A stretch of DNA of 57,029 nucleotides, taken from the IMG/VR virus record IMGVR_UViG_3300043425_000238, positions 1-57,029 of that record; one strand, written 5' to 3'. Positions within the stretch are counted from its first letter, which is position 1; each line of letters starts with the position of its first letter. The stretch is from a virus (taxonomy: Duplodnaviria; Caudoviricetes). The notes under the pieces are model-generated. The model worked only from the letters and a program-made list of their open reading frames with translations, searched no databases and was not told the DNA's origin. Below, in pieces: positions 36,322 to 50,341 of the stretch. The position numbers and the translations under genes are program-made.

Positions 36322-38120
36322 TTTTCTCCACGTTCGTCATCAATAGCTAAAGGGATCTTTAAATCAAAGCCACACATAATCCTGCCTGCATGTTCTAGTG
36401 CCTCAATCCCTTCTTTTGTATTCGGCGCTGTCCACACCAATTCATCATGAACCGTCATCAATGGCATGCCAATGGATCCAGTCACACCTTCTTCAACCAT
36501 TTTAATCATGGCCATCTTGTTAATATCAGCTGCAGAGCCTTGCAGGATCCTGTTCAGTGCCTTATGCGTATACGCTCTGCGGACTCTCCCCCACTTATCG
36601 ATTGCAAGACCTTTATCTTCAATGGCATCTTCTCTAACTCCCCACTGATCTGCTTCCCACATATTAAACCTGGCCCTGCGTCCAAGTATAGTCTTGACAT
36701 ATCCACGGGAGCCTGCCCTCTTGGCTGCCAGATTATACGTCTCACGGACAAATGGCATCTTGTCATGGTAAATACTAAAGATCCCTTCAGCTTCCGCCAC
36801 TGTCATGCCTAACTCAGACGCTAACTTAGCTTTGCCCATCCCGTAGACAAGACCAAAGTTAATGGATTTTGCCGGCTTACGAGCAACGCCAGTGATCTCC
36901 GACACCATGGTATGAAAGTCAGTGGTTGGATCCTCACGATACATAGACCTTGCAAGCTCTGCGCCACGGCCAACACCATAATGGGTCAGCATTCTAAATT
37001 CGATTTGACTCCAGTCTTGTGCCGACATGATCTCCCCTTCGTCAGGTAAGAACAGACTCCTGACCAAAGGCCCAATCTCTTCATCACGCGCTGGAATATT
37101 TTGAAGGTTAGGGTTAGAACTACTAAGTCGACCGCTAACAGTGCCATACTCATCAGAACGTAATTGATTAAATGTTCCATACAATCTCCCATCCACATGC
37201 TTGTCTAATATATAGCCACGAACAAAGGTATCTCTTGCCTTTAGAAGCCTGCGGATCTCATATACAATAGGTAGATTAGCCTTGAGCCATGCCCCTTCAA
37301 AAGAAGGATTGCCTTTACCTGTAGTAGGATACTGGATCCCCTTCTTGTCACAATACGCCTTTAACGCAGCAGCCTTGTTAACGTCTTCAATAGGAAACTC
37401 TTGACCATACACTTCAATTTGCGCTGACCAGTCATCGTCCAACTGCTTAGCTTTCTCAACGTCAACACGAACTCCCCTCAAGCGCATGTCAACCAGCATA
37501 GGACAGAGCTTAGCTTCTACCTCGTACACTCGCCACAAGTCTTGTGCTTCTAACTCAGCCTTTTGCAGCAAGAACAGGTCAGCCAGACGGTCCACGTCAC
37601 CTCTAGCATATTCCTCTACCCAACTTGCCGGTGCTTTCCAGATGTTGCCAGCTTGACGACGACCTTTAGGTCCGCCAAATGCTGCCCGCAGCCGTTCGTA
37701 CATCTCGTCTTGTACCTTGCCACCTAAACCATACTTGCCTAACAATGAATCCAATGAATAAGATCTAGCGTATTCATCCAACAAAGGTTCAGCCAGCTGC
37801 ACATCCCAGATAGGCCCGTTCACTGTCACGCCTTCCCACTTCAGCCAACCTAGATCGTAGTTAGCATTGGCAAAGACCTTTGGCTCATCGCCACTAAACT
37901 GCTCGTTAGCCCATCTCAGTACCTGATCACGGTCCATGTTGCCACCACCTTCATGGCGGATAGGTAGGTAATAACTCTCACCGCCGGCTGCCACGCAAAT
38001 GCCAACAATGTAGCCTTTACCACGACCCCATCCTGGTCCATTGTCTAGTAGTTCAGGATCGCACGTCTCCGTGTCGATAGCAATAGGGCCTTTACCTCTT
38101 AACTCCGGTAATACATTCAT
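36303..38120 (-). CDS. polA: DNA polymerase family A with 3'-5' exonuclease
   Basis: Exo I AIDTET, N..YD; TVSGRLSSSNPNLQNIP; motif A DWSQIEFR; motif B RKPAKSINFGLVYG (Phe at the E. coli 762-equivalent position); motif C VHDE. Confidence 0.95.
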   Translation of the reverse strand: MNVLPELRGKGPIAIDTETCDPELLDNGPGWGRGKGYIVGICVAAGGESYYLPIRHEGGGNMDRDQVLRWANEQFSGDEPKVFANANYDLGWLKWEGVTVNGPIWDVQLAEPLLDEYARSYSLDSLLGKYGLGGKVQDEMYERLRAAFGGPKGRRQAGNIWKAPASWVEEYARGDVDRLADLFLLQKAELEAQDLWRVYEVEAKLCPMLVDMRLRGVRVDVEKAKQLDDDWSAQIEVYGQEFPIEDVNKAAALKAYCDKKGIQYPTTGKGNPSFEGAWLKANLPIVYEIRRLLKARDTFVRGYILDKHVDGRLYGTFNQLRSDEYGTVSGRLSSSNPNLQNIPARDEEIGPLVRSLFLPDEGEIMSAQDWSQIEFRMLTHYGVGRGAELARSMYREDPTTDFHTMVSEITGVARKPAKSINFGLVYGMGKAKLASELGMTVAEAEGIFSIYHDKMPFVRETYNLAAKRAGSRGYVKTILGRRARFNMWEADQWGVREDAIEDKGLAIDKWGRVRRAYTHKALNRILQGSAADINKMAMIKMVEEGVTGSIGMPLMTVHDELVWTAPNTKEGIEALEHAGRIMCGFDLKIPLAIDDERGENWGSVK

Positions 38121-38563
38121 CAGACTTCCAATTCGTTATGGTGCCACTCACGTCCAGCCTTTTCCCATAGTGCCTTGCTAGTTTCACTATGCGGATAGTC
38201 TTGGTTGAACACAATTCGTTGGCAGCCGGTATTTAAGAGCAGCTTCAAGCAATGAATGCATGGCGCTGTCGTACAATAAGCAGTCTTGATCAGCTTCACG
38301 TCAGTCACCTGCAGCAGAGCATTCTGTTCAGCATGGATAGCTTCACACTTATCAAGGCCAAGGCCTGATCGATACTTAGCACCTTCACATGGCTCGTCAA
38401 TGCAATGAGCAAAGCCACTAGGCACGCCGTTGTAGCCAGTTGCCAAGACTTTGTTGTCTTCTGACACTAGCACGCAGCCAACTGTGCGTCTAGGACAAGT
38501 ACCTCTTGAAGAGACTACCTCGGCCATGACGCCAAAGTATTCATCCAGGCTAGGGCGTCGCAT
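38120..38563 (-). CDS. dCMP deaminase
   Basis: RPSLDEYF, R.TC.RR.VGC, ATGYNG, HAEQNA, PCIHC zinc motifs. Confidence 0.93.
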   Translation of the reverse strand: MRRPSLDEYFGVMAEVVSSRGTCPRRTVGCVLVSEDNKVLATGYNGVPSGFAHCIDEPCEGAKYRSGLGLDKCEAIHAEQNALLQVTDVKLIKTAYCTTAPCIHCLKLLLNTGCQRIVFNQDYPHSETSKALWEKAGREWHHNELEV

Positions 38564-39212
38564 AGTCTTCAACCAATTTAAAGTGTCGTTCGTAAACATG
38601 TAAGCTTGCTACATTCCAATAAATGTCACCTGCAGGGACGCCAATGTTATTTGATACCTGGTCTAGCACATACTTCTGCCAGGCATAGTCATTCTTGTAG
38701 CCAAACACAGCATCATTAGATCTCATGTACACTAGCGCATGAACCTTACCTTTCCTGATCAGGTACTGAACGGTGTTGGTACACATGAAGTCGCTCATGC
38801 CGCCTGTACTATATTCCCATTGCATCGATGGTCTTGTATAGATCATGATGGCTCTGCGAGAGTCATGGTTTCTTTTTAACTCAGTTACGCAATTGATAAA
38901 CTGATCATGGTTTTCTACTGAGTAGATGCACCAGCCATAGTTAGAGTTAATCCAACCTTCAGGCGATGCTACAGCTTTCCAAATAGCAGGGATTGGCTCA
39001 GGGATGTCGTTCACATTAAGTGACTTGGACAAATACCAATCAAGCTCACGCTTAACGTAGTCTTCGTTGACAAACCCAAACAATGCCTCGTCATCAGCCA
39101 AAAAAGAAGCATTCATGATCTCAATGGTTTTCACACCTGACTTGTCAATGACAAACTCACCTTTGCGAAGCTTCTTAACAAGCTTGTTGCAAATGTCTTT
39201 AGTCTTCTTCAT
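38550..39212 (-). CDS. dCMP hydroxymethylase (T4 gp42-like, thymidylate synthase fold)
   Basis: Long runs match T4 gp42 as recalled: DK.GVKTIEI, RELxWY.SKSL, INSNYGW, DSRR.IMIYTRPSMQ, GMSDFMCTNTVQYLIR, MRSND.VFG..NDYAWQKYVLD, SLHVY.RHF. The Asp equivalent to gp42 D179 (dCMP specificity) is kept. Confidence 0.9.
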   Translation of the reverse strand: MKKTKDICNKLVKKLRKGEFVIDKSGVKTIEIMNASFLADDEALFGFVNEDYVKRELDWYLSKSLNVNDIPEPIPAIWKAVASPEGWINSNYGWCIYSVENHDQFINCVTELKRNHDSRRAIMIYTRPSMQWEYSTGGMSDFMCTNTVQYLIRKGKVHALVYMRSNDAVFGYKNDYAWQKYVLDQVSNNIGVPAGDIYWNVASLHVYERHFKLVEDYATP

Positions 39213-40068: not shown

Positions 40069-40229
40069 CGAGGTAGCTCCAAGTGTTTAGTATCAACTTC
40101 CACGATCTTATCATCTGGCAGCTGCACCATGGCTGTGTCAGGATAATGACCTGTCTTTAAAACTTTAACTACACATTCAAACTCTCTATGCCATAACCAC
40201 TGTGGCAATGTTTTATTATTTGGCTGCAT
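40065..40229 (-). CDS. Hypothetical protein (54 aa)
   Basis: Read by hand: MQPNNKTLPQWLWHREFECVVKVLKTGHYPDTAMVQLPDDKIVEVDTKHLELPR; fills the gap and overlaps both neighbours. Confidence 0.5.
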   Translation of the reverse strand: MQPNNKTLPQWLWHREFECVVKVLKTGHYPDTAMVQLPDDKIVEVDTKHLELPR

Positions 40230-40629
40230 TCAGCACCCCTTCAATGTCAGGTCCTTGCCAGCCTCTCGGCTTAATTACATCTAGCGAGGATCCACGTTTA
40301 GATTCGTCAGCGCTACTTGCTCTGACCTTGCTCATGTTTGCTCGTTGAACCTCAGCCCACAATTGCTGCCATGGCAAGCCCATCATGTAAGCTGTGCCCA
40401 TAGCTACGTAGACTAGATCAATCAAAGCGTCTGCCATGCCTGGTAAATCATCAGAAATAGCACTCACACGGAATTCCATGAGCTCTTCTTCCAAGAATTT
40501 AAGACGGAATTTAACTGTCTCTTGGTCCAAGAGTCTAGGTTTGCCGTCATAAGTTAGGCCAAACTTTTCATGGAAGGCTGCCACATCTTCATAGTTGGAC
40601 AATGGTCCAAAGGTATCGTCTATGCTCAT
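40216..40629 (-). CDS. MazG-like all-alpha dNTP pyrophosphohydrolase (candidate dCTPase/dUTPase)
   Basis: DV..FH.KF, R...L.EEL.E, ADALIDLVYV, EV.RANMSK, KP..W..P motifs. Confidence 0.85.
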   Translation of the reverse strand: MSIDDTFGPLSNYEDVAAFHEKFGLTYDGKPRLLDQETVKFRLKFLEEELMEFRVSAISDDLPGMADALIDLVYVAMGTAYMMGLPWQQLWAEVQRANMSKVRASSADESKRGSSLDVIKPRGWQGPDIEGVLNAAK

Positions 40630-40925: not shown

Positions 40926-41837
40926 TTAAGGTTTAAGTAAATCTGACCTGTCACCCCACTCGCGGTATGAGTTGATGGTTGCAGCATCCATTGACACGTG
41001 GTGATCTTTACCAGTGTTCCAGAAGAAGGCACCATCACTAGCATGCTCTCTCATAAAGCGCAGGACTTTAAGATCGTAGGTCTTGACTGATGGGAATGGT
41101 GCAGTCTCAAGATCTTCACCACGGCCAAACTCGTAAGGATGGCTGTAGATCTTAGCTCTTCCTGCTTCGCCTGCTTTAATGTTACGGGCAACAGCTACAC
41201 AATGGAAGTCAGTATCTGGCCAGCCTACTTGCATGGATCTGCTCATGACGCCTGTTGAGATGGCTGTCCACATTTCCTTAGGTTGACCATGCTTCTTCAT
41301 GTAGTTATCACAGGCTCTGGTCATGACTGCAGTGACTAGCGGATGCTTCAAACCAAATGGGAAGAAGGTTGCATTGTTACGGTCAGCCCAAGCTTTTGCT
41401 TCTCTATTGAGATTAGGCATGGCAGCCGAACGAACCCAGCGTAGTTCACCGCCTAACTCCATGGCGTGCATTTGATGGGTTGATGCTTCTTGTCGGGCTG
41501 GTGCAAATAGCACCAAGCGTTTGTTGTACTTCTTAGCCAAGATTGCCAACGCTGCAGGCGCATGGCCTTGTCTAGGTGCTACATAGGTAATGGTATCAGT
41601 CTTGATGGTTGACATCAACAACTCACCAAGACGACCTTTTGTGCCACCTAGTGGGTTCAGATCTTCACGAACCACATGGAAGGTTCTACCCTTTTCATCG
41701 TTAGTCAACTGAAATGGCTCAACAACAAAGTCACCGCAAGGGTCGACCCAGTCTTTTGTCATTTCCAAATACTCTTCTCTGCTATGCAGCGTTAAGTCAT
41801 AGTTTATCCCGTCAAGGATATGGTTGTTATGCGCCAT
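40926..41837 (-). CDS. PLP-dependent enzyme, fold type II (ACC deaminase/D-Cys desulfhydrase-like; type used in phage base hypermodification)
   Basis: VVREDL...GGTKGR (Schiff-base Lys), G.A..ALA..A, STG loop, TYD.K, FWNTG. Confidence 0.8.
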   Translation of the reverse strand: MAHNNHILDGINYDLTLHSREEYLEMTKDWVDPCGDFVVEPFQLTNDEKGRTFHVVREDLNPLGGTKGRLGELLMSTIKTDTITYVAPRQGHAPAALAILAKKYNKRLVLFAPARQEASTHQMHAMELGGELRWVRSAAMPNLNREAKAWADRNNATFFPFGLKHPLVTAVMTRACDNYMKKHGQPKEMWTAISTGVMSRSMQVGWPDTDFHCVAVARNIKAGEAGRAKIYSHPYEFGRGEDLETAPFPSVKTYDLKVLRFMREHASDGAFFWNTGKDHHVSMDAATINSYREWGDRSDLLKP

Positions 41838-42960
41838 CTTTTACTCTCCTTTGATATTCGTCTACTGACATGTTAGCTCTGGACAAGACATAGTCATCAG
41901 AAGGGTGCACATTGATGTCGTTGAAACTACCAACAAGGCCCAATTCCAAATGCTTCCGCTGCCTTCCATAAGGGTGATGACCGACACGGTGACTGCTAAA
42001 TACACGATCCCGATCAAGATGCTCATAATCATGCCCTGGCCGGACATAAGATTCAATCCAGCGAATATAATCACAAGCAATATCTTCTGCATCATAGGGG
42101 ACTGATCCAGTGTCTTCATAAATTCTCTCCATAATGTTGTCTAGAAATTGTATTGGCTTCATCTTCTTTGGCTTGTCAAACAAGTAGCTCAAGCATTCCA
42201 CGGCGTTTGTGCCATAAAAGAAGTGGCTATCCCTTTTGACCAGCTCAGGGAAAAAGTCAGCAATGTCAGCAACTACCGCTGCATACTGGAATTTGTAGGC
42301 CCGTAGATCACGTGACCTGTTCCACTCAAACATCCATTCGCCAATCTCTCTCAAACCTTTAGGCTCCCCTGACGTTAACCAATCAGCTAAGCTACGGGCC
42401 AAGACAGGAGCGTACACGGCCAAGAAGAAGTCACCGCCTCGTTTGAAGCCACGACCTGGTCTAGGGAACGCGGGGAATTGGTAACCAACAGAAGTGTAGA
42501 ACGTAGACTGAGACCACTGGATCTTCTCAGCCATTTCCTCAATACTAAGCCCAATGATCTCTGGCAGCAGAGTGTTGTGGTAGCCTGAATGCTTCTTGCC
42601 ATAGTTAATTCCTGAGCCTGTCAGTCTGTGGAGCATAAATACATACAACCACTCAGGCAAGGACCAAACACCATGAACACCCGTAGCTTCTTCCGCAATT
42701 GGCAAACGAATGCCATGCATCTTATGATCGTATGGATGCTCCTCGGCTTTCCCATACCACAAGTCAAGCAAGATCTGTGTAAACCCGGCGTACTTACGGT
42801 TGACAACGTCGTAGAGGTGGACGTTCTTCATAAGGTCGTCGTCAAAAGGCGAGTCCTCGTGACGTGTCGTCCCTAGATTGCAATGTTCCTGCTGCCACGT
42901 CGCCATCTGATGGTAGCGTAGGAATTCAGGATAGTATTCGGTCATGACAAGATTTGTCAT
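41827..42960 (-). CDS. aGPT-PPlase / 5-hmdU DNA kinase-like helical (HhH-glycosylase fold) DNA-modifying protein
   Basis: DDLM......V.R, F.....VADIAD, YGTNA..CL and E...CD..R patterns resemble aGPT-PPlase1; sits between a PLP enzyme and the BGT-like fusion. Divergent; assigned by eye. Confidence 0.55.
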   Translation of the reverse strand: MTNLVMTEYYPEFLRYHQMATWQQEHCNLGTTRHEDSPFDDDLMKNVHLYDVVNRKYAGFTQILLDLWYGKAEEHPYDHKMHGIRLPIAEEATGVHGVWSLPEWLYVFMLHRLTGSGINYGKKHSGYHNTLLPEIIGLSIEEMAEKIQWSQSTFYTSVGYQFPAFPRPGRGFKRGGDFFLAVYAPVLARSLADWLTSGEPKGLREIGEWMFEWNRSRDLRAYKFQYAAVVADIADFFPELVKRDSHFFYGTNAVECLSYLFDKPKKMKPIQFLDNIMERIYEDTGSVPYDAEDIACDYIRWIESYVRPGHDYEHLDRDRVFSSHRVGHHPYGRQRKHLELGLVGSFNDINVHPSDDYVLSRANMSVDEYQRRVKDGA

Positions 42961-43931
42961 TCTGCTTCCCCTCTTAATAATCTATTCATACGGCCATGTG
43001 CCCATGAAACATGAACTGAACCTGGTTTTTCCATGTACTCTTCATCCATCTCGCCTTTGCTATTCTTAAAGTAGAACGGATAGCGCAGGTAGGTCCAACC
43101 ATTGTTAATACACATCTCGCTAAACAACTCGTCCATCTTACGACGTAAGAAGTCACGCTCCTCCCAAGATCCTGCAAACGGCGTGCCTTTGTAGTAGCCA
43201 GTCTTCGGGAGCTTACGACTCTCGTTCTCAATGTAGATCGGCTGCACAACTTGAATGCCACAGCCGGAGTCCCGCTGAATATCAATGAGCTGCTGCTGAA
43301 GTCGCACGACTAAGTCAACTAGCGCAGGAATTGGATGAGCTTGTCTATGTAAATGATGACGGATGTCGATATTACCGAAGCAAACCGCTAATTCGTCAGG
43401 AATGTACTCCAAAAAGCTAGAAATACCGCTTTCAAGTGCCCCAAAAAGAGTTTTCCCATCATGGCGTATGACTGACGCGCCTGGCACATACCAGTTCAAA
43501 CTATGACTGTCTCCTAATATAATATAACTCGAGGCTTTTTGTGTGTGGACAGGTGCGCTTGTGGCGCGAGCATTTAGAGTATCTTTTGGAAAATTTGGCC
43601 ATCTCCTAGCAATGAGGTCGCCAAAGCCGACTGGACGCTCATCTAACCACTCAAGTTTGTCACCGAAGCCGATCATGCGGTCAAACTTCTCACGATTCTC
43701 GTCAGAGGCGCCACCGAACAAGTTAAGAGTGCCTGACCATTCCATGCCGAGGTAGCAATAGATCTTGTCGTACTGCTCCCAATTAGTTTTAGATTCGTCT
43801 TTTGTGTAGATGACGTCGACGTCGTTGCCTTCACGACTAATTTGATCTGCGCGCATTAAAGCCCATGCAGTGCGGTGAGATCCTTCTTTAGGTGTTAAAG
43901 TCCCGTTCGGACTGTAGATTGCTATTTTCAT
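42957..43931 (-). CDS. T4 beta-glucosyltransferase-like N-terminal domain fused to an SGNH acyltransferase/esterase domain
   Basis: N-terminal MKIAI...ISREGNDVDVI...YDKI...LNLFGG...LDER parallels T4 BGT MKIAI...ISEMGLNVDII...YDRL...INFFGG...TDIR as recalled. C-terminal ILGDSHS, DG.T, FGNIDIR and SVH match SGNH blocks I, II, III and V. Confidence 0.6.
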   Translation of the reverse strand: MKIAIYSPNGTLTPKEGSHRTAWALMRADQISREGNDVDVIYTKDESKTNWEQYDKIYCYLGMEWSGTLNLFGGASDENREKFDRMIGFGDKLEWLDERPVGFGDLIARRWPNFPKDTLNARATSAPVHTQKASSYIILGDSHSLNWYVPGASVIRHDGKTLFGALESGISSFLEYIPDELAVCFGNIDIRHHLHRQAHPIPALVDLVVRLQQQLIDIQRDSGCGIQVVQPIYIENESRKLPKTGYYKGTPFAGSWEERDFLRRKMDELFSEMCINNGWTYLRYPFYFKNSKGEMDEEYMEKPGSVHVSWAHGRMNRLLRGEAE

Positions 43932-43974: not shown

Positions 43975-44007
43975 AGTATACCACGTTTCTTATTTTGTTG
44001 TAAACAG
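43975..44007 (-). promoter_or_regulatory. Sigma70-like promoter ctgTTTACA-N18-TATACT driving the modification operon
   Basis: Extended -10 (TGgTATACT), then hairpin cagtc-agat-gactg (43953-43966) and TAGAAAGAGG. Confidence 0.7.
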
Positions 44008-44009
44008 TT

Positions 44010-45539
44010 TTAGCGATACTCATTAAAATACATGTTAGTCTGTGGCAGCACAATGTGCAAGTGCTTCTTGGCTCTGGTAACGCCTACATAAAACACTCGG
44101 ATCTCGTCATCAGGATTCTTAGTGTATTCTGCATAGCTACGCTTTGCCAGATCAGTAAACACAACCACATGGTCAGCTTCTCCGCCTTTCACGCCATGGA
44201 TGGTTGAAACATGGTGCCTAGGATGCTGCGATAAAGCTTTAGGGCCTCCTTGACGCAGTACCATTAAATAGTACTCACGCTGCTCAAGAGGGATCCCTGT
44301 TAGAGCATCATGCCAAGGACCATCTACTAAGATGCCGTGATCTCGTTTAAGATCTTCCATTTTGTACTCGGCATCATCCAACAATGTCTTGCCGTCTTTG
44401 AATCCCCTCTTGATGCCAACACCAACCTCTAAGAATTCCAAGAAGTTTTTGATGTCATTGCCCAATTGAGGTTTGCCTGCTCTGAGCCGTTCCCAATAAA
44501 CAATAGCTTTGTGTTCCTTGGCTTTGACAGAGCTGCCTTGACTAGTGGTAAAAGTAATGCCTTGCTCAAATAGGTTTCTTTTAATCCCACTTAGTTGATA
44601 CGCATTCCTAGCTAGGTATAGCCAGGTCCCTTCAGCATCAGGGATCATGGTAGGATTCAAATAGTAACTAACAGCGCCTTTGTCTTCTCTAGACGCAAAT
44701 GCCTTATCAAACCTTTTGCCCACTCTCTTGATAATCTTTTGACTAAGCTTGTGGATAGAACTCGGCAGCCGCCATGACTTGGCTAATACTTCCCTCTCGC
44801 CTTCTAAGCTTAGGAATGAATCAACATCTGCACCTGACCATTTATAGATGGCCTGATCATCATCTCCTGCAATATAGATCTCAAGGCAGCCGTTAAATGC
44901 CCGCTTGATCACTTCCCATTGCACCTTGGACAGATCTTGTGCTTCATCAATAATGGCTATGTCAACCTTGGCAGGACGACCTTCAATCAAGTATTCTCTG
45001 AGCATGTCAGTAAAATCCATGAGCCCAGAGTCAAGCTTGTATTCTTTTAGTGCCTTACTAAATTGATTAAGCTGATGCCAACTAAAGTCAGGATACTCCA
45101 ACGAGTCGTACGTCTTCTTTAATGAATCTCCGGTAGACCGTGCAAGATTATCCACAAAGAGCATTTGATCGCCCACAGTACCACCAACAGGCAGTCCTGT
45201 TCCTTCTTCATCGAGTCTTCCATTTAGTGAAATGCCAAGGATCCTAGCAAGATCTTGATAATGCGCAGGACCCATGACAGAGGATCTACTAGCACCGGTT
45301 TGACGAAAACAAAAGCTGTGGACTGTCCTAAAGAATGGTAGATCCTTCTTTGTGAAGCCAAACTTCTTTTCAGCCCTACTAATAGCTTCGTTGACCGCCT
45401 TAGTAGTGAATGACATGTAGGCAATCCTATCAGGAGGAATTCCTGCTGCCAACTTTTGCTCAACTATATCTAGGAGTCTGGTTGTCTTACCACAACCAGG
45501 TGCCCCTAAGATCAGCGTTTGATGCTGACCTATCTTCAT
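44010..45539 (-). CDS. UvrD/Rep-like SF1 helicase
   Basis: GAPGCGKT, SFT.KA, T.HSF, IIDEAQD, GDDDQAIY, S.R.P, STIHGVKGGEAD, YV..TRA. Confidence 0.92.
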   Translation of the reverse strand: MKIGQHQTLILGAPGCGKTTRLLDIVEQKLAAGIPPDRIAYMSFTTKAVNEAISRAEKKFGFTKKDLPFFRTVHSFCFRQTGASRSSVMGPAHYQDLARILGISLNGRLDEEGTGLPVGGTVGDQMLFVDNLARSTGDSLKKTYDSLEYPDFSWHQLNQFSKALKEYKLDSGLMDFTDMLREYLIEGRPAKVDIAIIDEAQDLSKVQWEVIKRAFNGCLEIYIAGDDDQAIYKWSGADVDSFLSLEGEREVLAKSWRLPSSIHKLSQKIIKRVGKRFDKAFASREDKGAVSYYLNPTMIPDAEGTWLYLARNAYQLSGIKRNLFEQGITFTTSQGSSVKAKEHKAIVYWERLRAGKPQLGNDIKNFLEFLEVGVGIKRGFKDGKTLLDDAEYKMEDLKRDHGILVDGPWHDALTGIPLEQREYYLMVLRQGGPKALSQHPRHHVSTIHGVKGGEADHVVVFTDLAKRSYAEYTKNPDDEIRVFYVGVTRAKKHLHIVLPQTNMYFNEYR

Positions 45540-47059
45540 TAGAATTCGCCTTCAACCGATGGTAAGTCAAACTCACTGTCTTGTGCTGTAAAGGCTGGCA
45601 CTGACCAACACTGTACACACTTAGCTTTAATGTTGAACGAATGGTGTTCTGCACCACGTCGACGTAACGCTGACCAGATCTCTTTGCTAGACATGCTTCT
45701 AAAGTGTTGCTGTTCAAGGTATCGTTGGAAGTCAGATCCACGGAAGTAAGTACGACCTTCCTCTGTCCAAGGTTTGCCCATCAGCATCTCTTCTTTAACT
45801 CTAGCTTGTACCATACCTGTACAGAAGTTGTCAAGCATAAACCACATACGGCCTTCTGCCCCTGCATCATCTGGTGCTTCAATGATCTCAACATTACGTA
45901 GCTTTTCACGGATCATCTTTTCCCAAGTGATCGGTTTAATTCTGTTTGGATAGTTGTTGATTCGTTCCATACAGATCTTAGCAAACCTAGCTTGACTTAA
46001 CAAGTCATCAGTATCCAATTCCATACGAACACCGTCAACGTCAATGATCCAAATAGGTGGTTCTGTCATTAGCTTAACCAACGAACCAATGTTGACCATA
46101 GGATCATCTTCATTGCCTTCGCCAATACCAAATTGACGTCCTCGGCATAACTCTTTTGAGCAATGCTCATTCAGTGGAAACTTGTCGCATGGATAGAAAT
46201 AGCTTTTGCGTGATACTGATCTAGTCAGCATCAATACTTCTTTAGATGGCAATGGCGGATTCATAAACTTCTGATTGAATGGATCCATCTCCTTTTCCCA
46301 GTCGTCCGGAAACTTCATTCGGAGGTACACACCAACGGCAAACATGCCTGAGTTACGAGAGCCTTGTGGGAAACCTTGACTGGCTAATGACTGCAAACAC
46401 GGAGGGCCATCCATGAAGTCGTCATCGCCAGTCTTGGTTATTACCAGCTCTTTGAGCTCGTCTTCCGACACTCGCTTAGATTCAGCAAGGTCTAGGAATT
46501 CTTCTAATGTTTTCTTTTCATCGCCAACAATACAATAGCGCTCGGTCTTATCACCAGCAAAGTAAGGCATATTTAGCCAGTTACCTACGTCATTCTTAGA
46601 CGCTAGTCTTACTTGCTTAGGGAAGATCTCAACCTTAGGATAGCCTAACGCTGCTGCGTAGACCATTAACTTAGATCTCATTAGCGTAGCAGGAATTGGT
46701 TCAGAACCAAACAAGTACAAGTGAGCACCGCCTGATTTAGTACGGCAGATAATTAACGGCAGCTTAAACTCGTCAATCTTGTCTTGAATCTTCTTAAAGT
46801 CTATAGGATAGACGTCGATGTCAATGGCACCCCAATTACATGTGCCATCATCCTTGATAGGTACTACGCCTACACCAAGTGTTCCTTGCAAATGTTCTAG
46901 CCAATGTCCTTCAGACACACGGCCTAAAACAGTAGTTGCACGGCCTTCAATCTTACCAGAGCCTTTGACTCCAGTAATGATAAATTGTCCATGGGCTCTG
47001 TCCAAGCCTTCGTATAATACAGCTAGTCTATTCACTAGCTTATTTGTTTTTTCTTTCAT
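45539..47059 (-). CDS. AEP-type primase/primase-polymerase with PriCT-like domain
   Basis: WGAIDID, RTKSGGAHLY, EIFPKQ, GNWLNMPY, GPPCL, G.RN..MF. Confidence 0.75.
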   Translation of the reverse strand: MKEKTNKLVNRLAVLYEGLDRAHGQFIITGVKGSGKIEGRATTVLGRVSEGHWLEHLQGTLGVGVVPIKDDGTCNWGAIDIDVYPIDFKKIQDKIDEFKLPLIICRTKSGGAHLYLFGSEPIPATLMRSKLMVYAAALGYPKVEIFPKQVRLASKNDVGNWLNMPYFAGDKTERYCIVGDEKKTLEEFLDLAESKRVSEDELKELVITKTGDDDFMDGPPCLQSLASQGFPQGSRNSGMFAVGVYLRMKFPDDWEKEMDPFNQKFMNPPLPSKEVLMLTRSVSRKSYFYPCDKFPLNEHCSKELCRGRQFGIGEGNEDDPMVNIGSLVKLMTEPPIWIIDVDGVRMELDTDDLLSQARFAKICMERINNYPNRIKPITWEKMIREKLRNVEIIEAPDDAGAEGRMWFMLDNFCTGMVQARVKEEMLMGKPWTEEGRTYFRGSDFQRYLEQQHFRSMSSKEIWSALRRRGAEHHSFNIKAKCVQCWSVPAFTAQDSEFDLPSVEGEF

Positions 47060-47080
47060 CTTTCTAGCCCTTAAATAATT

Positions 47081-47119
47081 GCCGGTTACGTTTATCCGGC
47101 GTCTTTCGACCGGTTACCG
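47081..47119 (-). other. Structured intergenic element between SSB and primase genes
   Basis: Adjacent hairpins gccgg-N10-ccggc and gtc-tttc-gac (GAAA tetraloop on the minus strand). Confidence 0.4.
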
Positions 47120-47120
47120 C

Positions 47121-47924
47121 TTAAAAGTCTTCTGTTATCTCAACACCAGCGTCAGACATAGGTTGTTGAACCTTGACTTCGCCTGCAGTGATTGATTTTT
47201 GGAATGCTTTGGCAGCAGCGTACAATGCAGGGCTTACAGCACTGACTTCTTCGCCTAAAGTAATCTTATAACCAAACCATGAACCAGCGTCATTTGACTC
47301 AGGCACAGTAGTTAAGGTATACAAATGACTAAACATTGGCTTAGTTTTTACTTGGCCATCTTTACCAGTAAATTTTAAACCGTCCATTTTACTCATCCAT
47401 TGACGCGACTTTTTCAATTGTGAACTAGTCATTGACACTACTGCAGGACTGAATGAACCGTCTGCTTTAGCAATCAACACATAGTGATTGCGTGTATCAA
47501 CTAACACGTCACTAGTCTTAGGATTGATCTCACCTTTATCATCTTGGAAGTATGAACGACCATCGATGTTTTTAACAGTTGAGATAATTGGATCATCTGG
47601 TGTGTATTCAGCTTTAAAACCACCGCCAGTTTCACGAGCGCCCCAGCGAACAAATCGACGAGTGTAGTAACAAGGAATAACTTGTACACCTACATCACCG
47701 CCAACAACTTCTTGAGTAACGCTATTAAATAGTGAGCCTTCTTCTGCGCCTTTAATATAGGCACCATCAGATTTTTTCACTTGAGGTGAACCAGATTGCA
47801 ACACGCTTAAGAACGGTATTGCATAGGCGTCCTTATCAGCTTGCTCAAAACCACTACCAGCATCTTCGTCATAATCAACAACTGCTAATGCCGTATTCTT
47901 TTTTAAATCTACATCTGTAGCCAT
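47121..47924 (-). CDS. Single-stranded DNA-binding protein (putative)
   Basis: IPFL.VLQ..SPQV, M.SSQLKKSR.W, Y.L.TV.ESN..GSWFG, acidic C-terminal tail ending in EDF. Confidence 0.65.
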   Translation of the reverse strand: MATDVDLKKNTALAVVDYDEDAGSGFEQADKDAYAIPFLSVLQSGSPQVKKSDGAYIKGAEEGSLFNSVTQEVVGGDVGVQVIPCYYTRRFVRWGARETGGGFKAEYTPDDPIISTVKNIDGRSYFQDDKGEINPKTSDVLVDTRNHYVLIAKADGSFSPAVVSMTSSQLKKSRQWMSKMDGLKFTGKDGQVKTKPMFSHLYTLTTVPESNDAGSWFGYKITLGEEVSAVSPALYAAAKAFQKSITAGEVKVQQPMSDAGVEITEDF

Positions 47925-47986
47925 AATATTACTCCTAACTTTCTAAAATAACTGCCAAGTTTAGCCTCCGGCAATCTCAAGAGGTA

Positions 47987-48511
47987 CTACTTAATCACAG
48001 CCTTCGAATATGGATAGGCTCCAAACAATTCCAAAGGAACGTCTACACCCTTAGCCATTTGCTCTTTAATAAAAGCTTTTAGCGTTTGAGCATGAACACC
48101 CTCTTTGTCACTGTAATTCATACCATGCTCTTGACAATACTCTTTTAAAGCTTCGGCACTGTCGTCTTCGCCACGCCCAAAGTCAATTGCCACGGTATTT
48201 TTAATCAAATCGCCAAAGCCACTTTCACGCAGCCATGCGTAGGCATCTCTCTTTTTATCAGCCGGAACTGACACAGCCACATCGTCCTTAATGGTGATCT
48301 TGGCTCCATTGTCAAGAGTGAATGCTTTCATGCCGGCTTCCGCCATAGCTGTTGGCAATAGATCTTCTTGCACTAACCTAAGTTCAGCTTCCGCTTGCTT
48401 AAGTTCGTCTTCTTTAACCAATACTGCTCTCTCAGCTTCTTGCTGTCTCTTAGCGAGATTAGCAATTTGCTTTAAGGCATTGTTGGATACACTAATTTCT
48501 AAATCTTCCAT
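47987..48511 (-). CDS. Conserved replication-module protein
   Basis: LP..M.E.G......DG..., A..WLRE.G.GDLIKN.V, VH.QTLKAF..E motifs. Confidence 0.65.
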   Translation of the reverse strand: MEDLEISVSNNALKQIANLAKRQQEAERAVLVKEDELKQAEAELRLVQEDLLPTAMAEAGMKAFTLDNGAKITIKDDVAVSVPADKKRDAYAWLRESGFGDLIKNTVAIDFGRGEDDSAEALKEYCQEHGMNYSDKEGVHAQTLKAFIKEQMAKGVDVPLELFGAYPYSKAVIK

Positions 48512-48870
48512 TATACTGCCTTTCCTGATGTATCAAGTTGAACTGGGATATAAGCCTGTTGGAAACGATCCCACTTTAATAACTTAATCCTTCCGCCTGT
48601 TTTTTCACCTGCAATCATGGCAGCGGCAACCATAATAGATGGATCTCCAATTGGCAACAAATAGTCGTCATCTGAAAAATCTTTAAGCTTCTCACGCAAA
48701 GCTCTAATTACTGGAACAGGTGAGAAGAAAGAATGACCAGGTGGCATTAAGATCTCAACTTGTCCAAACTCTATAGCTGGTGTTAAGTCAAACTCTGATA
48801 CCCACTGGCCATCAACTTTCCTAGCTTTTTCTTGTGTTACGTATACTGCAGGCATCTTAAATCCAATCAA
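48511..48870 (-). CDS. Conserved hypothetical protein downstream of the SNF2 helicase
   Basis: VYV.QE, A.EFG, L.DF..DDYLL..GDP, LKWDR....Y. Confidence 0.65.
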   Translation of the reverse strand: MIGFKMPAVYVTQEKARKVDGQWVSEFDLTPAIEFGQVEILMPPGHSFFSPVPVIRALREKLKDFSDDDYLLPIGDPSIMVAAAMIAGEKTGGRIKLLKWDRFQQAYIPVQLDTSGKAV

Positions 48871-50341
48871 TTAAAGGGTCTTTTGTTATTAGGTTTGCAA
48901 CGTCTTTTTTCATTCTTAGCGCTGCAATAATTCTTTTATCTATCGTGTCAACTGCTTCAATGTCGTAGTATGTCACAGTATTCTTTTGACCAATACGGTG
49001 AGCACGATCCTCAGATTGCAAGCGATCTTCCAAGCTAAATGTGTTGGAATAGTAGATCACGGTACTAGCTTCTGTCAAAGTCAAACCAGTACCGCCAGCT
49101 GCTTGCGTACCAACAAAGAATCTAATCTTGTTGTCTTCTTGGAAGTCCTTCATGGCCTTAGCACGATCGTCTGATGACACGTCGCCATAATACAAGACTG
49201 TCTGGCCTGGATATTCTTCCTCTAGAGCTTCATAAATCAACTGAATGTCTTTTCTAAACCTTGCCCAGATAATAGCTTTGCCTGATGTTTCCTCAAGCAA
49301 TTCCATTAGAGTGCGGATTCTTGGGTTTAAGCTGCCTTTCTCAAAAATAGGAGTCTCGCCATTTTCACCAGGAATAAAGCCGCAAGTGACTTGTTGCAAA
49401 CGCAATACAGCTGTTAGCTTTGACATTGCTTCAAAGTCGCCATTAGCAAATTCAATCCGTAAGTTTTCTTTAATGTCTTTGTAGACAGCTTTTTGTTCTG
49501 GTGCCAAATCAAAGTATCGACGTTGGTAAACCTTGTCAGGTAAATCCAAACAGTCTTTTTTCAATACGCGAAATGAATGTGGCGCTATAAGCTTCTGTAA
49601 TTCGTCTAGATTCTTGTATAAAGGACGACCTTCTTTGTCAGTAGCAATGATCTGTGGAGCACGTCTACCGCCTGTTCTTTGCATAATATGGCGTAAGATA
49701 GGTGATGACTCATCTAACAATTGTGCATATCTAGCTTTAAAGATAAAGAAGCTTGACGTACCTAATATGTCTTCATCTAAAAACATGAACTGACCAAATA
49801 TGTCTAACGGACTTTGAGTGACAGGGGTACCTGTAGCAATAGTCTTGTACTTAGCTAACTTACCAAGTTTAATAATATGCTTTGTACGCTGCGTAGAAAA
49901 GTGTTTAATCTTACTAGATTCATCAACAATCATGTGTGCGCTAAAGGTTCGTAAGAACTTTTCTGCTATCTTCCGGCCTTTCTCAGTGGATAAAGCCTCA
50001 ATGTTCATAGCAAGGACGCGCAGATCAGCACCTGGATCGTATAGTTTTTCGTACGTCTTACGTTCTTCTACCTTCATAGAAGATGCGTACCACGCGCTTC
50101 TGGCACACGCATAATCTGGCATGTGCTTAGGGATCTCGTTAATAATCCAATTACGATGCACTCCGTTAGGCGCAATAACTAACAATGCATTGATCTGACC
50201 TTTACCGTATAGGTATGCAGTCTTGTCAATAGCAATTTTTGTCTTACCTGTTCCTTGCTCACACAACAATGCAAACGACTTTAAATCTTTAGAGACGTTA
50301 AATGCTTCTAATTGATGTGCCAATGGTTTTGTCTTAAACAC
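48857..50341 (-). CDS. SNF2-family (SF2) helicase
   Basis: P..HQ, EQGTGKT, IVDESS, TGTP, GGTGLTLT, QSEDRAHRIGQ; GTG start. Confidence 0.92.
   Translation of the reverse strand: MFKTKPLAHQLEAFNVSKDLKSFALLCEQGTGKTKIAIDKTAYLYGKGQINALLVIAPNGVHRNWIINEIPKHMPDYACARSAWYASSMKVEERKTYEKLYDPGADLRVLAMNIEALSTEKGRKIAEKFLRTFSAHMIVDESSKIKHFSTQRTKHIIKLGKLAKYKTIATGTPVTQSPLDIFGQFMFLDEDILGTSSFFIFKARYAQLLDESSPILRHIMQRTGGRRAPQIIATDKEGRPLYKNLDELQKLIAPHSFRVLKKDCLDLPDKVYQRRYFDLAPEQKAVYKDIKENLRIEFANGDFEAMSKLTAVLRLQQVTCGFIPGENGETPIFEKGSLNPRIRTLMELLEETSGKAIIWARFRKDIQLIYEALEEEYPGQTVLYYGDVSSDDRAKAMKDFQEDNKIRFFVGTQAAGGTGLTLTEASTVIYYSNTFSLEDRLQSEDRAHRIGQKNTVTYYDIEAVDTIDKRIIAALRMKKDVANLITKDPLIDWI

Follow-up and report, generated by a model that had tools for sequence, protein, structure and literature searches.

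A phage protein that joins a beta-glucosyltransferase-like domain to an SGNH-like domain, and its possible part in cytosine hypermodification

The gene that we call c0 lies at positions 42957–43931, on the minus strand, of virus record IMGVR_UViG_3300043425_000238, a complete record (CheckV completeness 100) that we analysed over its whole length of 57,029 bases and refer to below as the window. An earlier note on this DNA had called the same open reading frame (ORF), which we confirm to start with ATG and to encode 324 amino acids (aa), and had described its product as the acceptor domain of the bacteriophage T4 beta-glucosyltransferase (BGT) joined to a catalytic domain of the SGNH type. This two-part architecture is borne out by our comparisons, in which the N-terminal half aligns with that of BGT (E 1.2e-14) and the C-terminal half is an SGNH-like Ser/His domain that is not that of BGT. 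To judge from its relatives and its gene neighbourhood, c0 probably starts an undescribed route by which 5-hydroxymethylcytosine (5hmC, below hmC) is decorated in phage DNA. In particular, and more tentatively, we propose that c0 is an hmC-DNA-directed enzyme of a cytosine hypermodification module, in which Ser142 would transfer an acyl or aminoacyl group and the products of two linked genes, c1 and the pyridoxal phosphate (PLP) enzyme gene c3, would act next.

The kind of system is a known one, namely the hypermodification of hydroxymethyl-pyrimidines by phages; what is new is the architecture of the enzyme and possibly the chemistry. The known fates of hmC in phages are glycosylation, arabinosylation and carbamoylation, and the amino-acid-type hypermodifications described so far are those of thymine, which start with a P-loop DNA kinase. 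The c0 family points to a different and widespread route, in which a recycled BGT acceptor domain is combined with an esterase-like domain and locked to two further enzymes. In the full-text literature (subscription journals and supplements lay outside it) we found nothing that links SGNH or GDSL proteins with hmC or with phage hypermodification, or that names an acyl- or aminoacyl-hmC; nor did we find there a described enzyme that combines a BGT N-terminal domain with an SGNH domain, in agreement with the earlier note. Such new chemistries of DNA matter for the resistance of phages to restriction and CRISPR, and have also been of use as reagents for the mapping of 5hmC.

The two halves of the c0 protein

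The N-terminal domain of c0 resembles BGT from its first residues on: both proteins start with MKIAI, and in BLASTP 126 residues, counted from Met1 on, align with T4 BGT at 26% identity (E 0.001). For profile comparisons with hhalign we used an alignment of the c0 family (A2; 134 sequences, to which the residue counts out of 134 given below refer) and an alignment of the BGT family (A3; 36 of the 42 homologues found). The two profiles matched with a probability of 97.5% (E 5.7e-12, 104 columns), pairing residues 1–110 of c0 with residues 1–118 of BGT, and the N-domain of c0 alone matched the BGT profile with a probability of 98.3% (E 1.2e-14, 107 columns), whereas c0 found nothing in T4 alpha-glucosyltransferase (probability 1%). 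By these comparisons, the N-domain of c0 and the N-terminal half of BGT are homologous, well beyond chance, and the alignment by eye of the first ~110 residues that had suggested this holds. The window protein has no match to the BGT family model PF09198 (T4-Gluco-transf) at E<=1, and three of the 134 family members match it (best E 0.024); PDB sequence searches with c0 alone and with family profiles A1 and A2 returned no BGT or SGNH chain at E<=10.

Within the N-domain, the residues conserved in the c0 family are S18-H19 (125 and 128 of 134, respectively), W23, D55, G62, G67 and the loop N70-x-F72-G73-G74, in which N70 is found in 129, G73 in 115 and G74 in 123 members. The loop is common to the c0 family and BGT, as had been noticed earlier, and its N70, G73 and G74 are invariant in BGT, an enzyme that flips the target base. 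S18-H19, D55 and G62, by comparison, are conserved positions of the c0 family's own. The catalytic residues of BGT, which we take to be Asp100, as the catalytic base, and Glu22, are not kept. In the hhalign alignment the BGT-invariant pair T99-D100 is placed in a 4-residue gap relative to c0, and Glu22 aligns with Trp23 of the c0 family. The earlier note had counted a D-x-R motif (LDER) among the shared features and had equated its Asp with Asp100, but neither claim survives the larger alignment: of the 134 members, 66 have Asp at position 97, 12 have Glu and 16 have Gly, and at position 99, where the commonest residues are Pro, Asp and Glu, the Arg of the window is unconserved.

Residues 111–135 are the least conserved part of the protein, and the stretch between the columns of residues 110 and 137 varies in length from 22 to 66 residues across the 134 members; we therefore mark the domain boundary there. 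The C-domain that follows carries the motifs GDSH (S142), R156-x-D-G-x-T161, FGNIDIRHH (D189, H193) and M300-E301...S-V-H307. Conservation is strongest in this half of the protein at G140-D141-S142, D189, H193, R239 and R259 (each in 134/134), H143, T161, G254 and H307 (133/134), R191 and E301 (132/134) and G186 (131/134), and the block II Gly is found as G159 in 87/134. With the SGNH/GDSL enzymes (PF13472, PF00657 and PF19040, with E. coli TesA as prototype) c0 shares the order of a GDS Ser, which in c0 follows a hydrophobic strand, a G-x-x-D block and a C-terminal His, colinear with TesA-type sequences. Unlike those enzymes, the c0 family lacks the block V Asp, has G-N-I-D in place of G-x-N-D as its block III, and possesses additional invariant residues (H143, D189, R191, H193, R239, R259 and E301) together with a family-specific loop of 25 residues (235–259; E235-x-E-S-R239...K243-T-G-x-Y-K-G-x-P-F-x-G254...R259). 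Thus, of the SGNH motifs that had been claimed for this protein, the GDSH, G186, D189 and H307 are present and conserved, whereas block V is without its Asp and block III departs from the canonical form. To our knowledge, no SGNH enzyme has DNA as its substrate.

In a Pfam scan of the 134 members at E<=1, Lipase_GDSL_2 (PF13472) matched 10 members (best E 2.1e-4), SGNH (PF19040) and Lipase_GDSL (PF00657) matched 9 each, T4-Gluco-transf matched the 3 mentioned above, and all other models matched 2 or fewer. One of the GDSL matches, seen in detail, covered profile positions 41–170 of 178 with 13.3 bits, against a cut-off of 32.9, and ten members chosen for their canonical-looking motifs gave one GDSL match (E 0.12). 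A language-model feature search led to a viral Lipase_GDSL cluster with a score of 0.91. When A2 was compared with E. coli TesA, only the GDS block was aligned (probability 1%). Searches for TesA homologues and of genome contigs gave only close relatives of TesA (67–99% identity), and the SGNH set used for the comparisons that follow consists of more diverse PF13472 sequences.

A link to the SGNH enzymes is provided by three bacterial relatives, which match the C-domain of c0 (probability 98.5%, E 2.7e-15) and have no BGT-like N-domain. These align over their full length with the SGNH set with a score of 29.0 (probability 16.6%), as compared with a maximum of 21.3 in 30 column shuffles and with 14.9 in a reversed control. 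Two of the three carry a canonical D-x-x-H, and in one of them Cys replaces the GDS Ser, which is the kind of swap seen at nucleophile positions. Homology of the C-domain to the SGNH enzymes thus has weak, transitive statistical support. Taking motifs and alignments together, we consider it likely that the C-domain is SGNH-like, and a chimeric origin of c0 appears likely to the same degree. The three bacterial sequences (L214:910-2340, L216 and L217, from genomes G154, G060 and G106) lie inside ORFs of 431–929 aa and form a subfamily with the motifs GDSHS (GNCHS in one), FGE(V/I)DIR and D-x-x-H.

The same comparisons bear on the possibility that c0 is a very divergent GT-B glycosyltransferase, whose GDSH loop would bind phosphate rather than serve as the nucleophile. 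Its N-terminal half does derive from a GT-B enzyme, BGT; the C-terminal half, at ~190 aa, resembles in size the C-domain of BGT, if the boundaries of the latter are as we take them to be; and a gene for a sodium:solute (sugar-type) symporter adjoins the homologue in Aeromonas phage 44RR. However, hhalign gave a probability of 1.4% for the C-half against BGT and of 1.4–2.6% against the C-part of BGT, with a score of 21.5, where 20 column shuffles reached at most 20.2, and with only 10 columns aligned locally. Of the invariants of the BGT C-domain in A3 (G188, R191, R269 and E272), the UDP-binding R191, R269 and E272 have no aligned counterparts in c0, and the bacterial relatives, alignable with the SGNH set over their whole length, failed to align with the C-part of BGT (score 16.1). 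On this evidence, the C-half of c0 is not the donor domain of BGT, and that c0 is a glycosyltransferase is improbable. The donor chemistry of c0 must differ from that of BGT.

Genomic setting and partner genes

Like T4, the window phage encodes a dCMP hydroxymethylase of the gp42 type (Table 1). The gene is the only member of the thymidylate synthase (TS) family in the genome (a single PF00303 match), and its product has Asp at the column of gp42 D179, a residue that presumably marks specificity for cytosine. With a gp42-type enzyme as its sole TS-family member, the phage very probably makes hmC and not hydroxymethyluracil (hmU). Modification of thymine (by way of hmU) by the cluster was considered and rejected when the TS-like gene proved to be of the gp42 type, 60% identical to T4 gp42. 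In phages that bear the c0 family, 12 of 12 TS-like proteins, encoded by genes that include those adjoining the module and that of 44RR, have Asp at the D179 column; gene 42 of 44RR is 57% identical to the TS-like gene of the window, whereas the ordinary thymidylate synthase of 44RR has Asn at that column. The connection with 5hmC-containing DNA that had been drawn for c0 from its sequence is upheld by these genes.

Phages 44RR, 31 and 25 of Aeromonas carry the c0 family together with gene 42. In the passages of Petrov et al. (2010; PMC2993671) on which we draw, these three phages are described as having genes 42 and 56 and no glucosyltransferase, and whether Hm-dCMP is modified in other ways in phages with gene 42 but without a glucosyltransferase is stated not to be known. 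In 44RR, our BGT profile (A3) found no BGT, a blank search that is no proof of absence. The c0 family is a candidate answer to the question, open since 2010, of what, if anything, these phages do to their hmC; since all three are cultured, the question can be put directly to nucleoside mass spectrometry.

Downstream of c0, on the same strand, follow c1, c3, a small ORF, genes for the MazG-like, P-loop and TS-like proteins and the dCMP deaminase, and then a gene for a family A DNA polymerase; upstream lie genes for a UvrD-type helicase and an AEP primase. The MazG-like protein is a candidate for the role of dCTPase, and the 289-aa P-loop protein, which among 81 loci compared is confined to the window and the locus most closely related to it (L002), is a candidate dNMP kinase. 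Homologues of these two window proteins were not found in T4 or 44RR, where again a blank search is no proof of absence.

Table 1. Positions in the window of c0, its parts and the genes and signals discussed with it
Feature	Position	Strand	Basis
dCMP deaminase	38120–38599	-	PF00383, E 6.7e-20; PHROG 174
dCMP hydroxymethylase, T4 gp42 type	38550–39212	-	60% identity to T4 gp42, E 9e-94
289-aa protein with N-terminal P-loop	39199–40068	-	weakly (d)TMP-kinase-like; C-terminal ~130 aa without assignment
MazG/PRA-PH nucleotide pyrophosphohydrolase	40216–40629	-	PF01503, E 6.9e-15; PHROG 671
c3, 303-aa fold-type-II PLP enzyme (PALP)	40926–41837	-	PALP, PHROG 7093, likeness to M6 gp52
c1, 377-aa conserved protein of unknown function	41827–42960	-	79 of 81 loci; fusions with c0
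c0, two-domain protein	42957–43931	-	matches to PHROG 13881 and 17781
c0 C-domain, residues 136–324	42960–43526	-	SGNH-like Ser/His domain
c0 linker, residues 111–135	43527–43601	-	least conserved, variable length
c0 N-domain, residues 1–110	43602–43931	-	homologous to N-terminal half of T4 BGT
Promoter-like TTTACA-18 nt-TATACT	43975–44004	-	consensus match only, 10/12, TG

The 81 loci are the window and 80 stretches from IMG/VR, whose ORFs were clustered by BLASTP; they are mutually related and many are contig fragments, so that the counts of neighbouring genes are not independent. Directly after c0, c1 is found in 79 of the 81 loci; c3 is present in 60, a MazG-like protein in 44 and a c1 paralogue in 34, and a DUF6378 protein is encoded upstream of c0 in 68. 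No P-loop kinase is among the conserved neighbours of the module in these loci. In the window, the TGA stop of c0 overlaps the ATG start of c1 (ATGA), and c3 overlaps the stop of c1 by 11 nt. Between the window and its marine relatives c1 is better conserved than c0 (52–57% versus 35–41% identity), and an alignment of 37 c1 sequences (A4) contains 58 invariant positions, including C296. The ORFs that vary in the module include one for a ~350–375-aa protein, in 34 of the 81 loci, that is weakly c1-like (E 2.4e-8 to the C-terminal half of P0151), one for a protein of the LOG/'lysine decarboxylase' family and one for a weakly GT-A-like protein (example loci L031:10384-11511, L004:10387-11058, L023:9035-9904 and L012:7645-7947).

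Among nine long members of the family, five (P0171, P0150, P0224, P0151 and P0195) are natural fusions of c0 with c1, the C-terminal halves of which match a hidden Markov model (HMM) of c1 at E 3e-75 to 8e-34. In a quick tree, with SH-aLRT support only, the fusions fall in at least three supported subclades and are interleaved with unfused forms. Fusions of a second kind join c0 to a helical region: P0137 consists of an FkbM methyltransferase, an HMUDK_hel domain (E 4.5e-11) and c0, ORF233c of Aeromonas phage 44RR2.8t (795 aa) consists of c0 and a C-terminal region with a weak HMUDK_hel match (E 0.0036), and the two proteins share the helical region (E 4.9e-19). Directly upstream of the gene for the 795-aa fusion, ORF234c (L001:4408-5931) encodes the sodium:solute symporter mentioned above (PF00474, E 6.2e-53), which might import a precursor of the modification.

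The c1 protein found no match in Pfam (with the window protein, four single members, and 37 members at E<=1), PHROGs, NCBIfam or the PDB, and nothing in a tblastn search of the phage collection. Comparisons by hhalign or BLASTP with 44RR ORF233c, P0137 and the phage M6 proteins gp51, gp54 and gp55 likewise gave nothing (probability below 1% for the M6 proteins). A lead comes from the language model, in which the clusters nearest to c1 carry HMUDK_hel in 11–14% of their members. We also considered, and on sequence comparison with ORF233c rejected, an equivalence of c1 with the C-terminal half of this Aeromonas fusion.

The c3 protein matches PALP (E 8.8e-8, below the cut-off) and PHROG 7093 (E 3e-39), and M6 gp52 can be aligned with the whole of it (23% identity over 279 aa, E 1.2e-4), such that Lys67 of c3, a Lys in 44 of 44 sequences, aligns with K36 of gp52; in a PDB sequence search it found only a cysteine synthase (E 0.0034). 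In the passages of PMC8989533 on which we draw, gp52 removes the carboxyl group of an amino acid linked to thymine in DNA, and K36 is predicted to form the internal aldimine. The closest relative of c3 in a cultured phage (31.6% identity) is the PALP domain of an 812-aa protein of Erythrobacter phage ZS04_7 (L170:2326-4764), which is annotated as a DNA methyltransferase and has an N6_N4_Mtase match beside the PALP domain. Similar matches occur in Erythrobacter phage vB_EliS_R6L and Microcystis phage Mae-JY30, and such a union of PLP domain and DNA methylase may point to one more PLP chemistry directed at DNA.

This setting speaks to whether c0 acts on DNA at all. It could instead be, for example, an esterase for the host envelope or for lipid with a Rossmann-like N-domain, given that the catalytic residues of BGT are not kept and that binding of DNA by c0 is a prediction. 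However, c0 lies in a block of replication and nucleotide-metabolism genes beside those for the synthesis of hmC, and is linked to a gene whose product is related to a PLP decarboxylase that acts on DNA; it is fused to HMUDK_hel, significantly in P0137 and weakly in 44RR ORF233c; and we noticed, without a formal test, neither a signal peptide nor a lysis-gene context. An action away from DNA is therefore highly improbable.

A possible route from hmC to a hypermodified cytosine

From the observed domain homology, residue conservation, gene linkage, fusions and hmC setting we infer a scheme in which the binding to DNA, the donor, the acyl chemistry and the order of steps are conjectural. The gp42-type dCMP hydroxymethylase, helped by the kinase and the MazG-type pyrophosphatase, would lead to hydroxymethyl-dCTP (hmdCTP), and hmC would enter the DNA. 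The N-domain of c0 would then dock on hmC DNA and offer the 5-CH2OH group to the cleft between the domains, where a divergent SGNH-type domain would take the place of the UDP-glucose domain of BGT. Ser142, with His307, may bind an acyl or aminoacyl group covalently and hand it on to the hydroxyl of hmC. In the lineage of the window and in most marine relatives, the O-substituted hmC would be processed further, by c1 first and then by the PLP enzyme c3, presumably to an adduct derived from an amino acid. Because c0 is coupled or fused to c1 and coupled to a PLP enzyme, the end product is likely a multi-step hypermodification and not a simple ester.

The scheme would parallel the kinase, transferase and decarboxylase logic of thymidine hypermodification. 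In the passages of PMC8989533 used here, the pathway of phages M6, ViI and PaMx11 proceeds from a 5-hydroxymethyl-deoxyuridine (5-hmdU) DNA kinase to an amino-acid:DNA transferase (aGPT-Pplase) and a PLP decarboxylase, and fusions of the first with the second enzyme occur, as they do for c0 and c1. Both systems have a three-gene module near genes for a pyrimidine hydroxymethylase, a MazG-type enzyme and a dCMP deaminase; both include a fold-type-II PLP enzyme, that of the window being related to the M6 gp52 / ViI gp226 type, with the Lys aligned to that of gp52 kept; and the fusion of some c0 members to an HMUDK_hel-type domain mirrors the layout of the 5-hmdU DNA kinases, in which a P-loop kinase is joined to a helical domain. 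They differ in that the base modified in the window would be cytosine and not thymine, there being no dUMP hydroxymethylase (the sole TS-family gene is of the gp42 type), in that the first enzyme is c0 and not a P-loop kinase, and in that c1 has no similarity to aGPT-Pplase or HMUDK_hel that Pfam or hhalign detected.

The parallel also gives rise to the main alternative, namely that c0 transfers a phosphoryl or other non-acyl leaving group to hmC, and thus is a non-P-loop analogue of the 5-hmdU DNA kinase that primes substitution by c1. In its favour, c0 stands where 5-HMUDK stands in the kinase/transferase/PLP pathways of thymidine, as far as these are laid out in the passages of PMC8989533 that we use, some of its members are, like the P-loop kinase, fused to an HMUDK_hel-type domain, and no P-loop kinase is conserved beside the module in the 81 loci. 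The invariant R191, H193, R239 and R259 and the lack of the Asp and Asn of SGNH enzymes would also fit a phosphate-handling site. However, c0 has neither a nucleotide-binding motif nor a match to a kinase family, and the invariant GDS Ser and C-terminal His, as well as the Cys variant among the bacterial relatives, suggest an esterase-like, covalent nucleophile. Furthermore, no SGNH-type kinase is known to us. We regard the transfer of such a leaving group as unlikely.

A conserved Ser and His would be compatible with hydrolysis, and most SGNH proteins are hydrolases. Accordingly, c0 could be an editing esterase that removes an ester-linked group from the modified base or from a nucleotide precursor, and the fact that no gene that would supply a donor is seen in the module could be read in the same way. 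The Aeromonas phages, however, carry c0, fused to the helical domain, without c1 or c3, so that no maker of an ester to be trimmed was found there, and the retention of the acceptor half of BGT suggests an action on the hydroxyl of hmC. Hydrolysis as the function of c0 is thus quite unlikely.

Two described enzymes show what the acyl or aminoacyl transfer that we propose would share with known routes to decorated hmC. As with T4 BGT, c0 belongs to a phage that makes hmC, or very probably does so, with a gp42-type enzyme. The 5hmC carbamoyltransferase of metagenomic phages, in the passages of PMC8670742 on which we draw, places a non-sugar group on the hydroxyl of hmC, as c0 would, and has TS-like, PRA-PH/MazG and dCMP deaminase genes as neighbours; unlike c0, it belongs to an unrelated family with carbamoyltransferase N and C domains, and acts in a single step with a known donor.

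A number of observations weigh against acyl transfer by c0 onto hmC. On the side of the N-domain, the presumed catalytic residues of BGT are not kept, position 97 being acidic in 78 of the 134 members and Trp23 standing at Glu22. On the side of the C-domain, the block V Asp of SGNH enzymes, three residues before His307, is absent in 134/134, as position 304 is Arg in 48, Gln in 33, Lys in 23, Gly in 18, Ser in 8, Asn in 2 and Tyr in 1 member, with one gap, and never Asp; and in block III (G186-N187-I188-D189) the Asp is in register and the Asn one position early, with Ile at the position of the TesA Asn. Direct alignment of the C-domain with the SGNH set scored 23.4, as compared with a shuffle maximum of 21.6 and with up to 22.5 for unrelated alignments, and is not significant; a purpose-built SGNH HMM reached a best E of 0.13 over 347 members; and the PDB sequence searches with c0 or the family profiles returned no SGNH chain. 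TS-like genes were found in 5 of the 15 family-bearing virus records searched, including both of those that are at least 90% complete, and are missing from the other 10, all of which are fragments, 20–64% complete. In addition, c1 is not tied to the known amino-acid:DNA transferases (0 of 37 members with a Pfam match, and nothing against M6 gp51, gp54 or gp55), no gene for an acyl donor or carrier is evident in the module, and the cluster of invariant R191, H193, R239 and R259 would fit phosphate chemistry as well.

A bolder form of the acyl-transfer proposal, which we offer as speculation and hold to be doubtful, is that c0 founds a new class of DNA-modifying enzyme, an SGNH-type serine-nucleophile transferase that esterifies 5hmC in duplex DNA. 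The ester would, in most carriers, be a phosphate-free leaving group, used by c1, as a new kind of base-substituting transferase, and then by the PLP enzyme to give the first hypermodified cytosine of an amino-acid or amine type, and the fused form of c0 would explain the fate of hmC in phages 44RR, 31 and 25.

Spread of the c0 family and further features of the locus

The c0 family is large, almost purely viral and without a Pfam model. A word-indexed protein search gave 559 proteins at E<=0.001 among 1,614 candidates, and an exhaustive search of representatives at 50% identity gave 394 proteins at E<=0.001, 132 of them at E<=1e-30. Among the matches listed, 0 of 120 family proteins had a precomputed Pfam domain. 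The window protein itself found no match in Pfam or NCBIfam, and matches PHROG 13881 (E 1.1e-50) and PHROG 17781 (E 2.4e-33), both of unknown function. In IMG/VR, at least 535 stretches were confirmed from 600 pattern matches. Cultured phages contributed 43 records (38 of Aeromonas, 3 of Tenacibaculum and 2 of Stenotrophomonas phages), at ~29–32% identity, and bacterial genomes contributed a single match, to the C-terminal half only, among 301 sampled from one phylum. We do not claim free-standing C-domains in phages, as the short members are mostly truncated or mis-started gene calls. In Aeromonas phages Aes508 and 60AhydR15PP a gene for an HNH homing endonuclease adjoins the family gene or shares its match, and the HNH-associated matches, which occur in some genomes of the phage 25 type, cover only residues 3–285.

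In the window, the minus strand carries nearly all of the long ORFs, and no tRNA genes were found. A purine-rich stretch resembling a ribosome-binding site lies just upstream of c0, and the 78 bp that separate c0 from the UvrD-type helicase gene contain the promoter-like site. A replication block at 45539–50341, also on the minus strand, encodes an AEP-type primase (AEP-TOTE, PriCT_1), proteins like Pam3 gp34 and gp33, and an SNF2 helicase. Compared with the polymerases of cultured siphoviruses of Microcystis, Stenotrophomonas, Dinoroseobacter, Pseudomonas and Vibrio, the family A DNA polymerase encoded beyond the dCMP deaminase gene reaches no more than ~43% identity.

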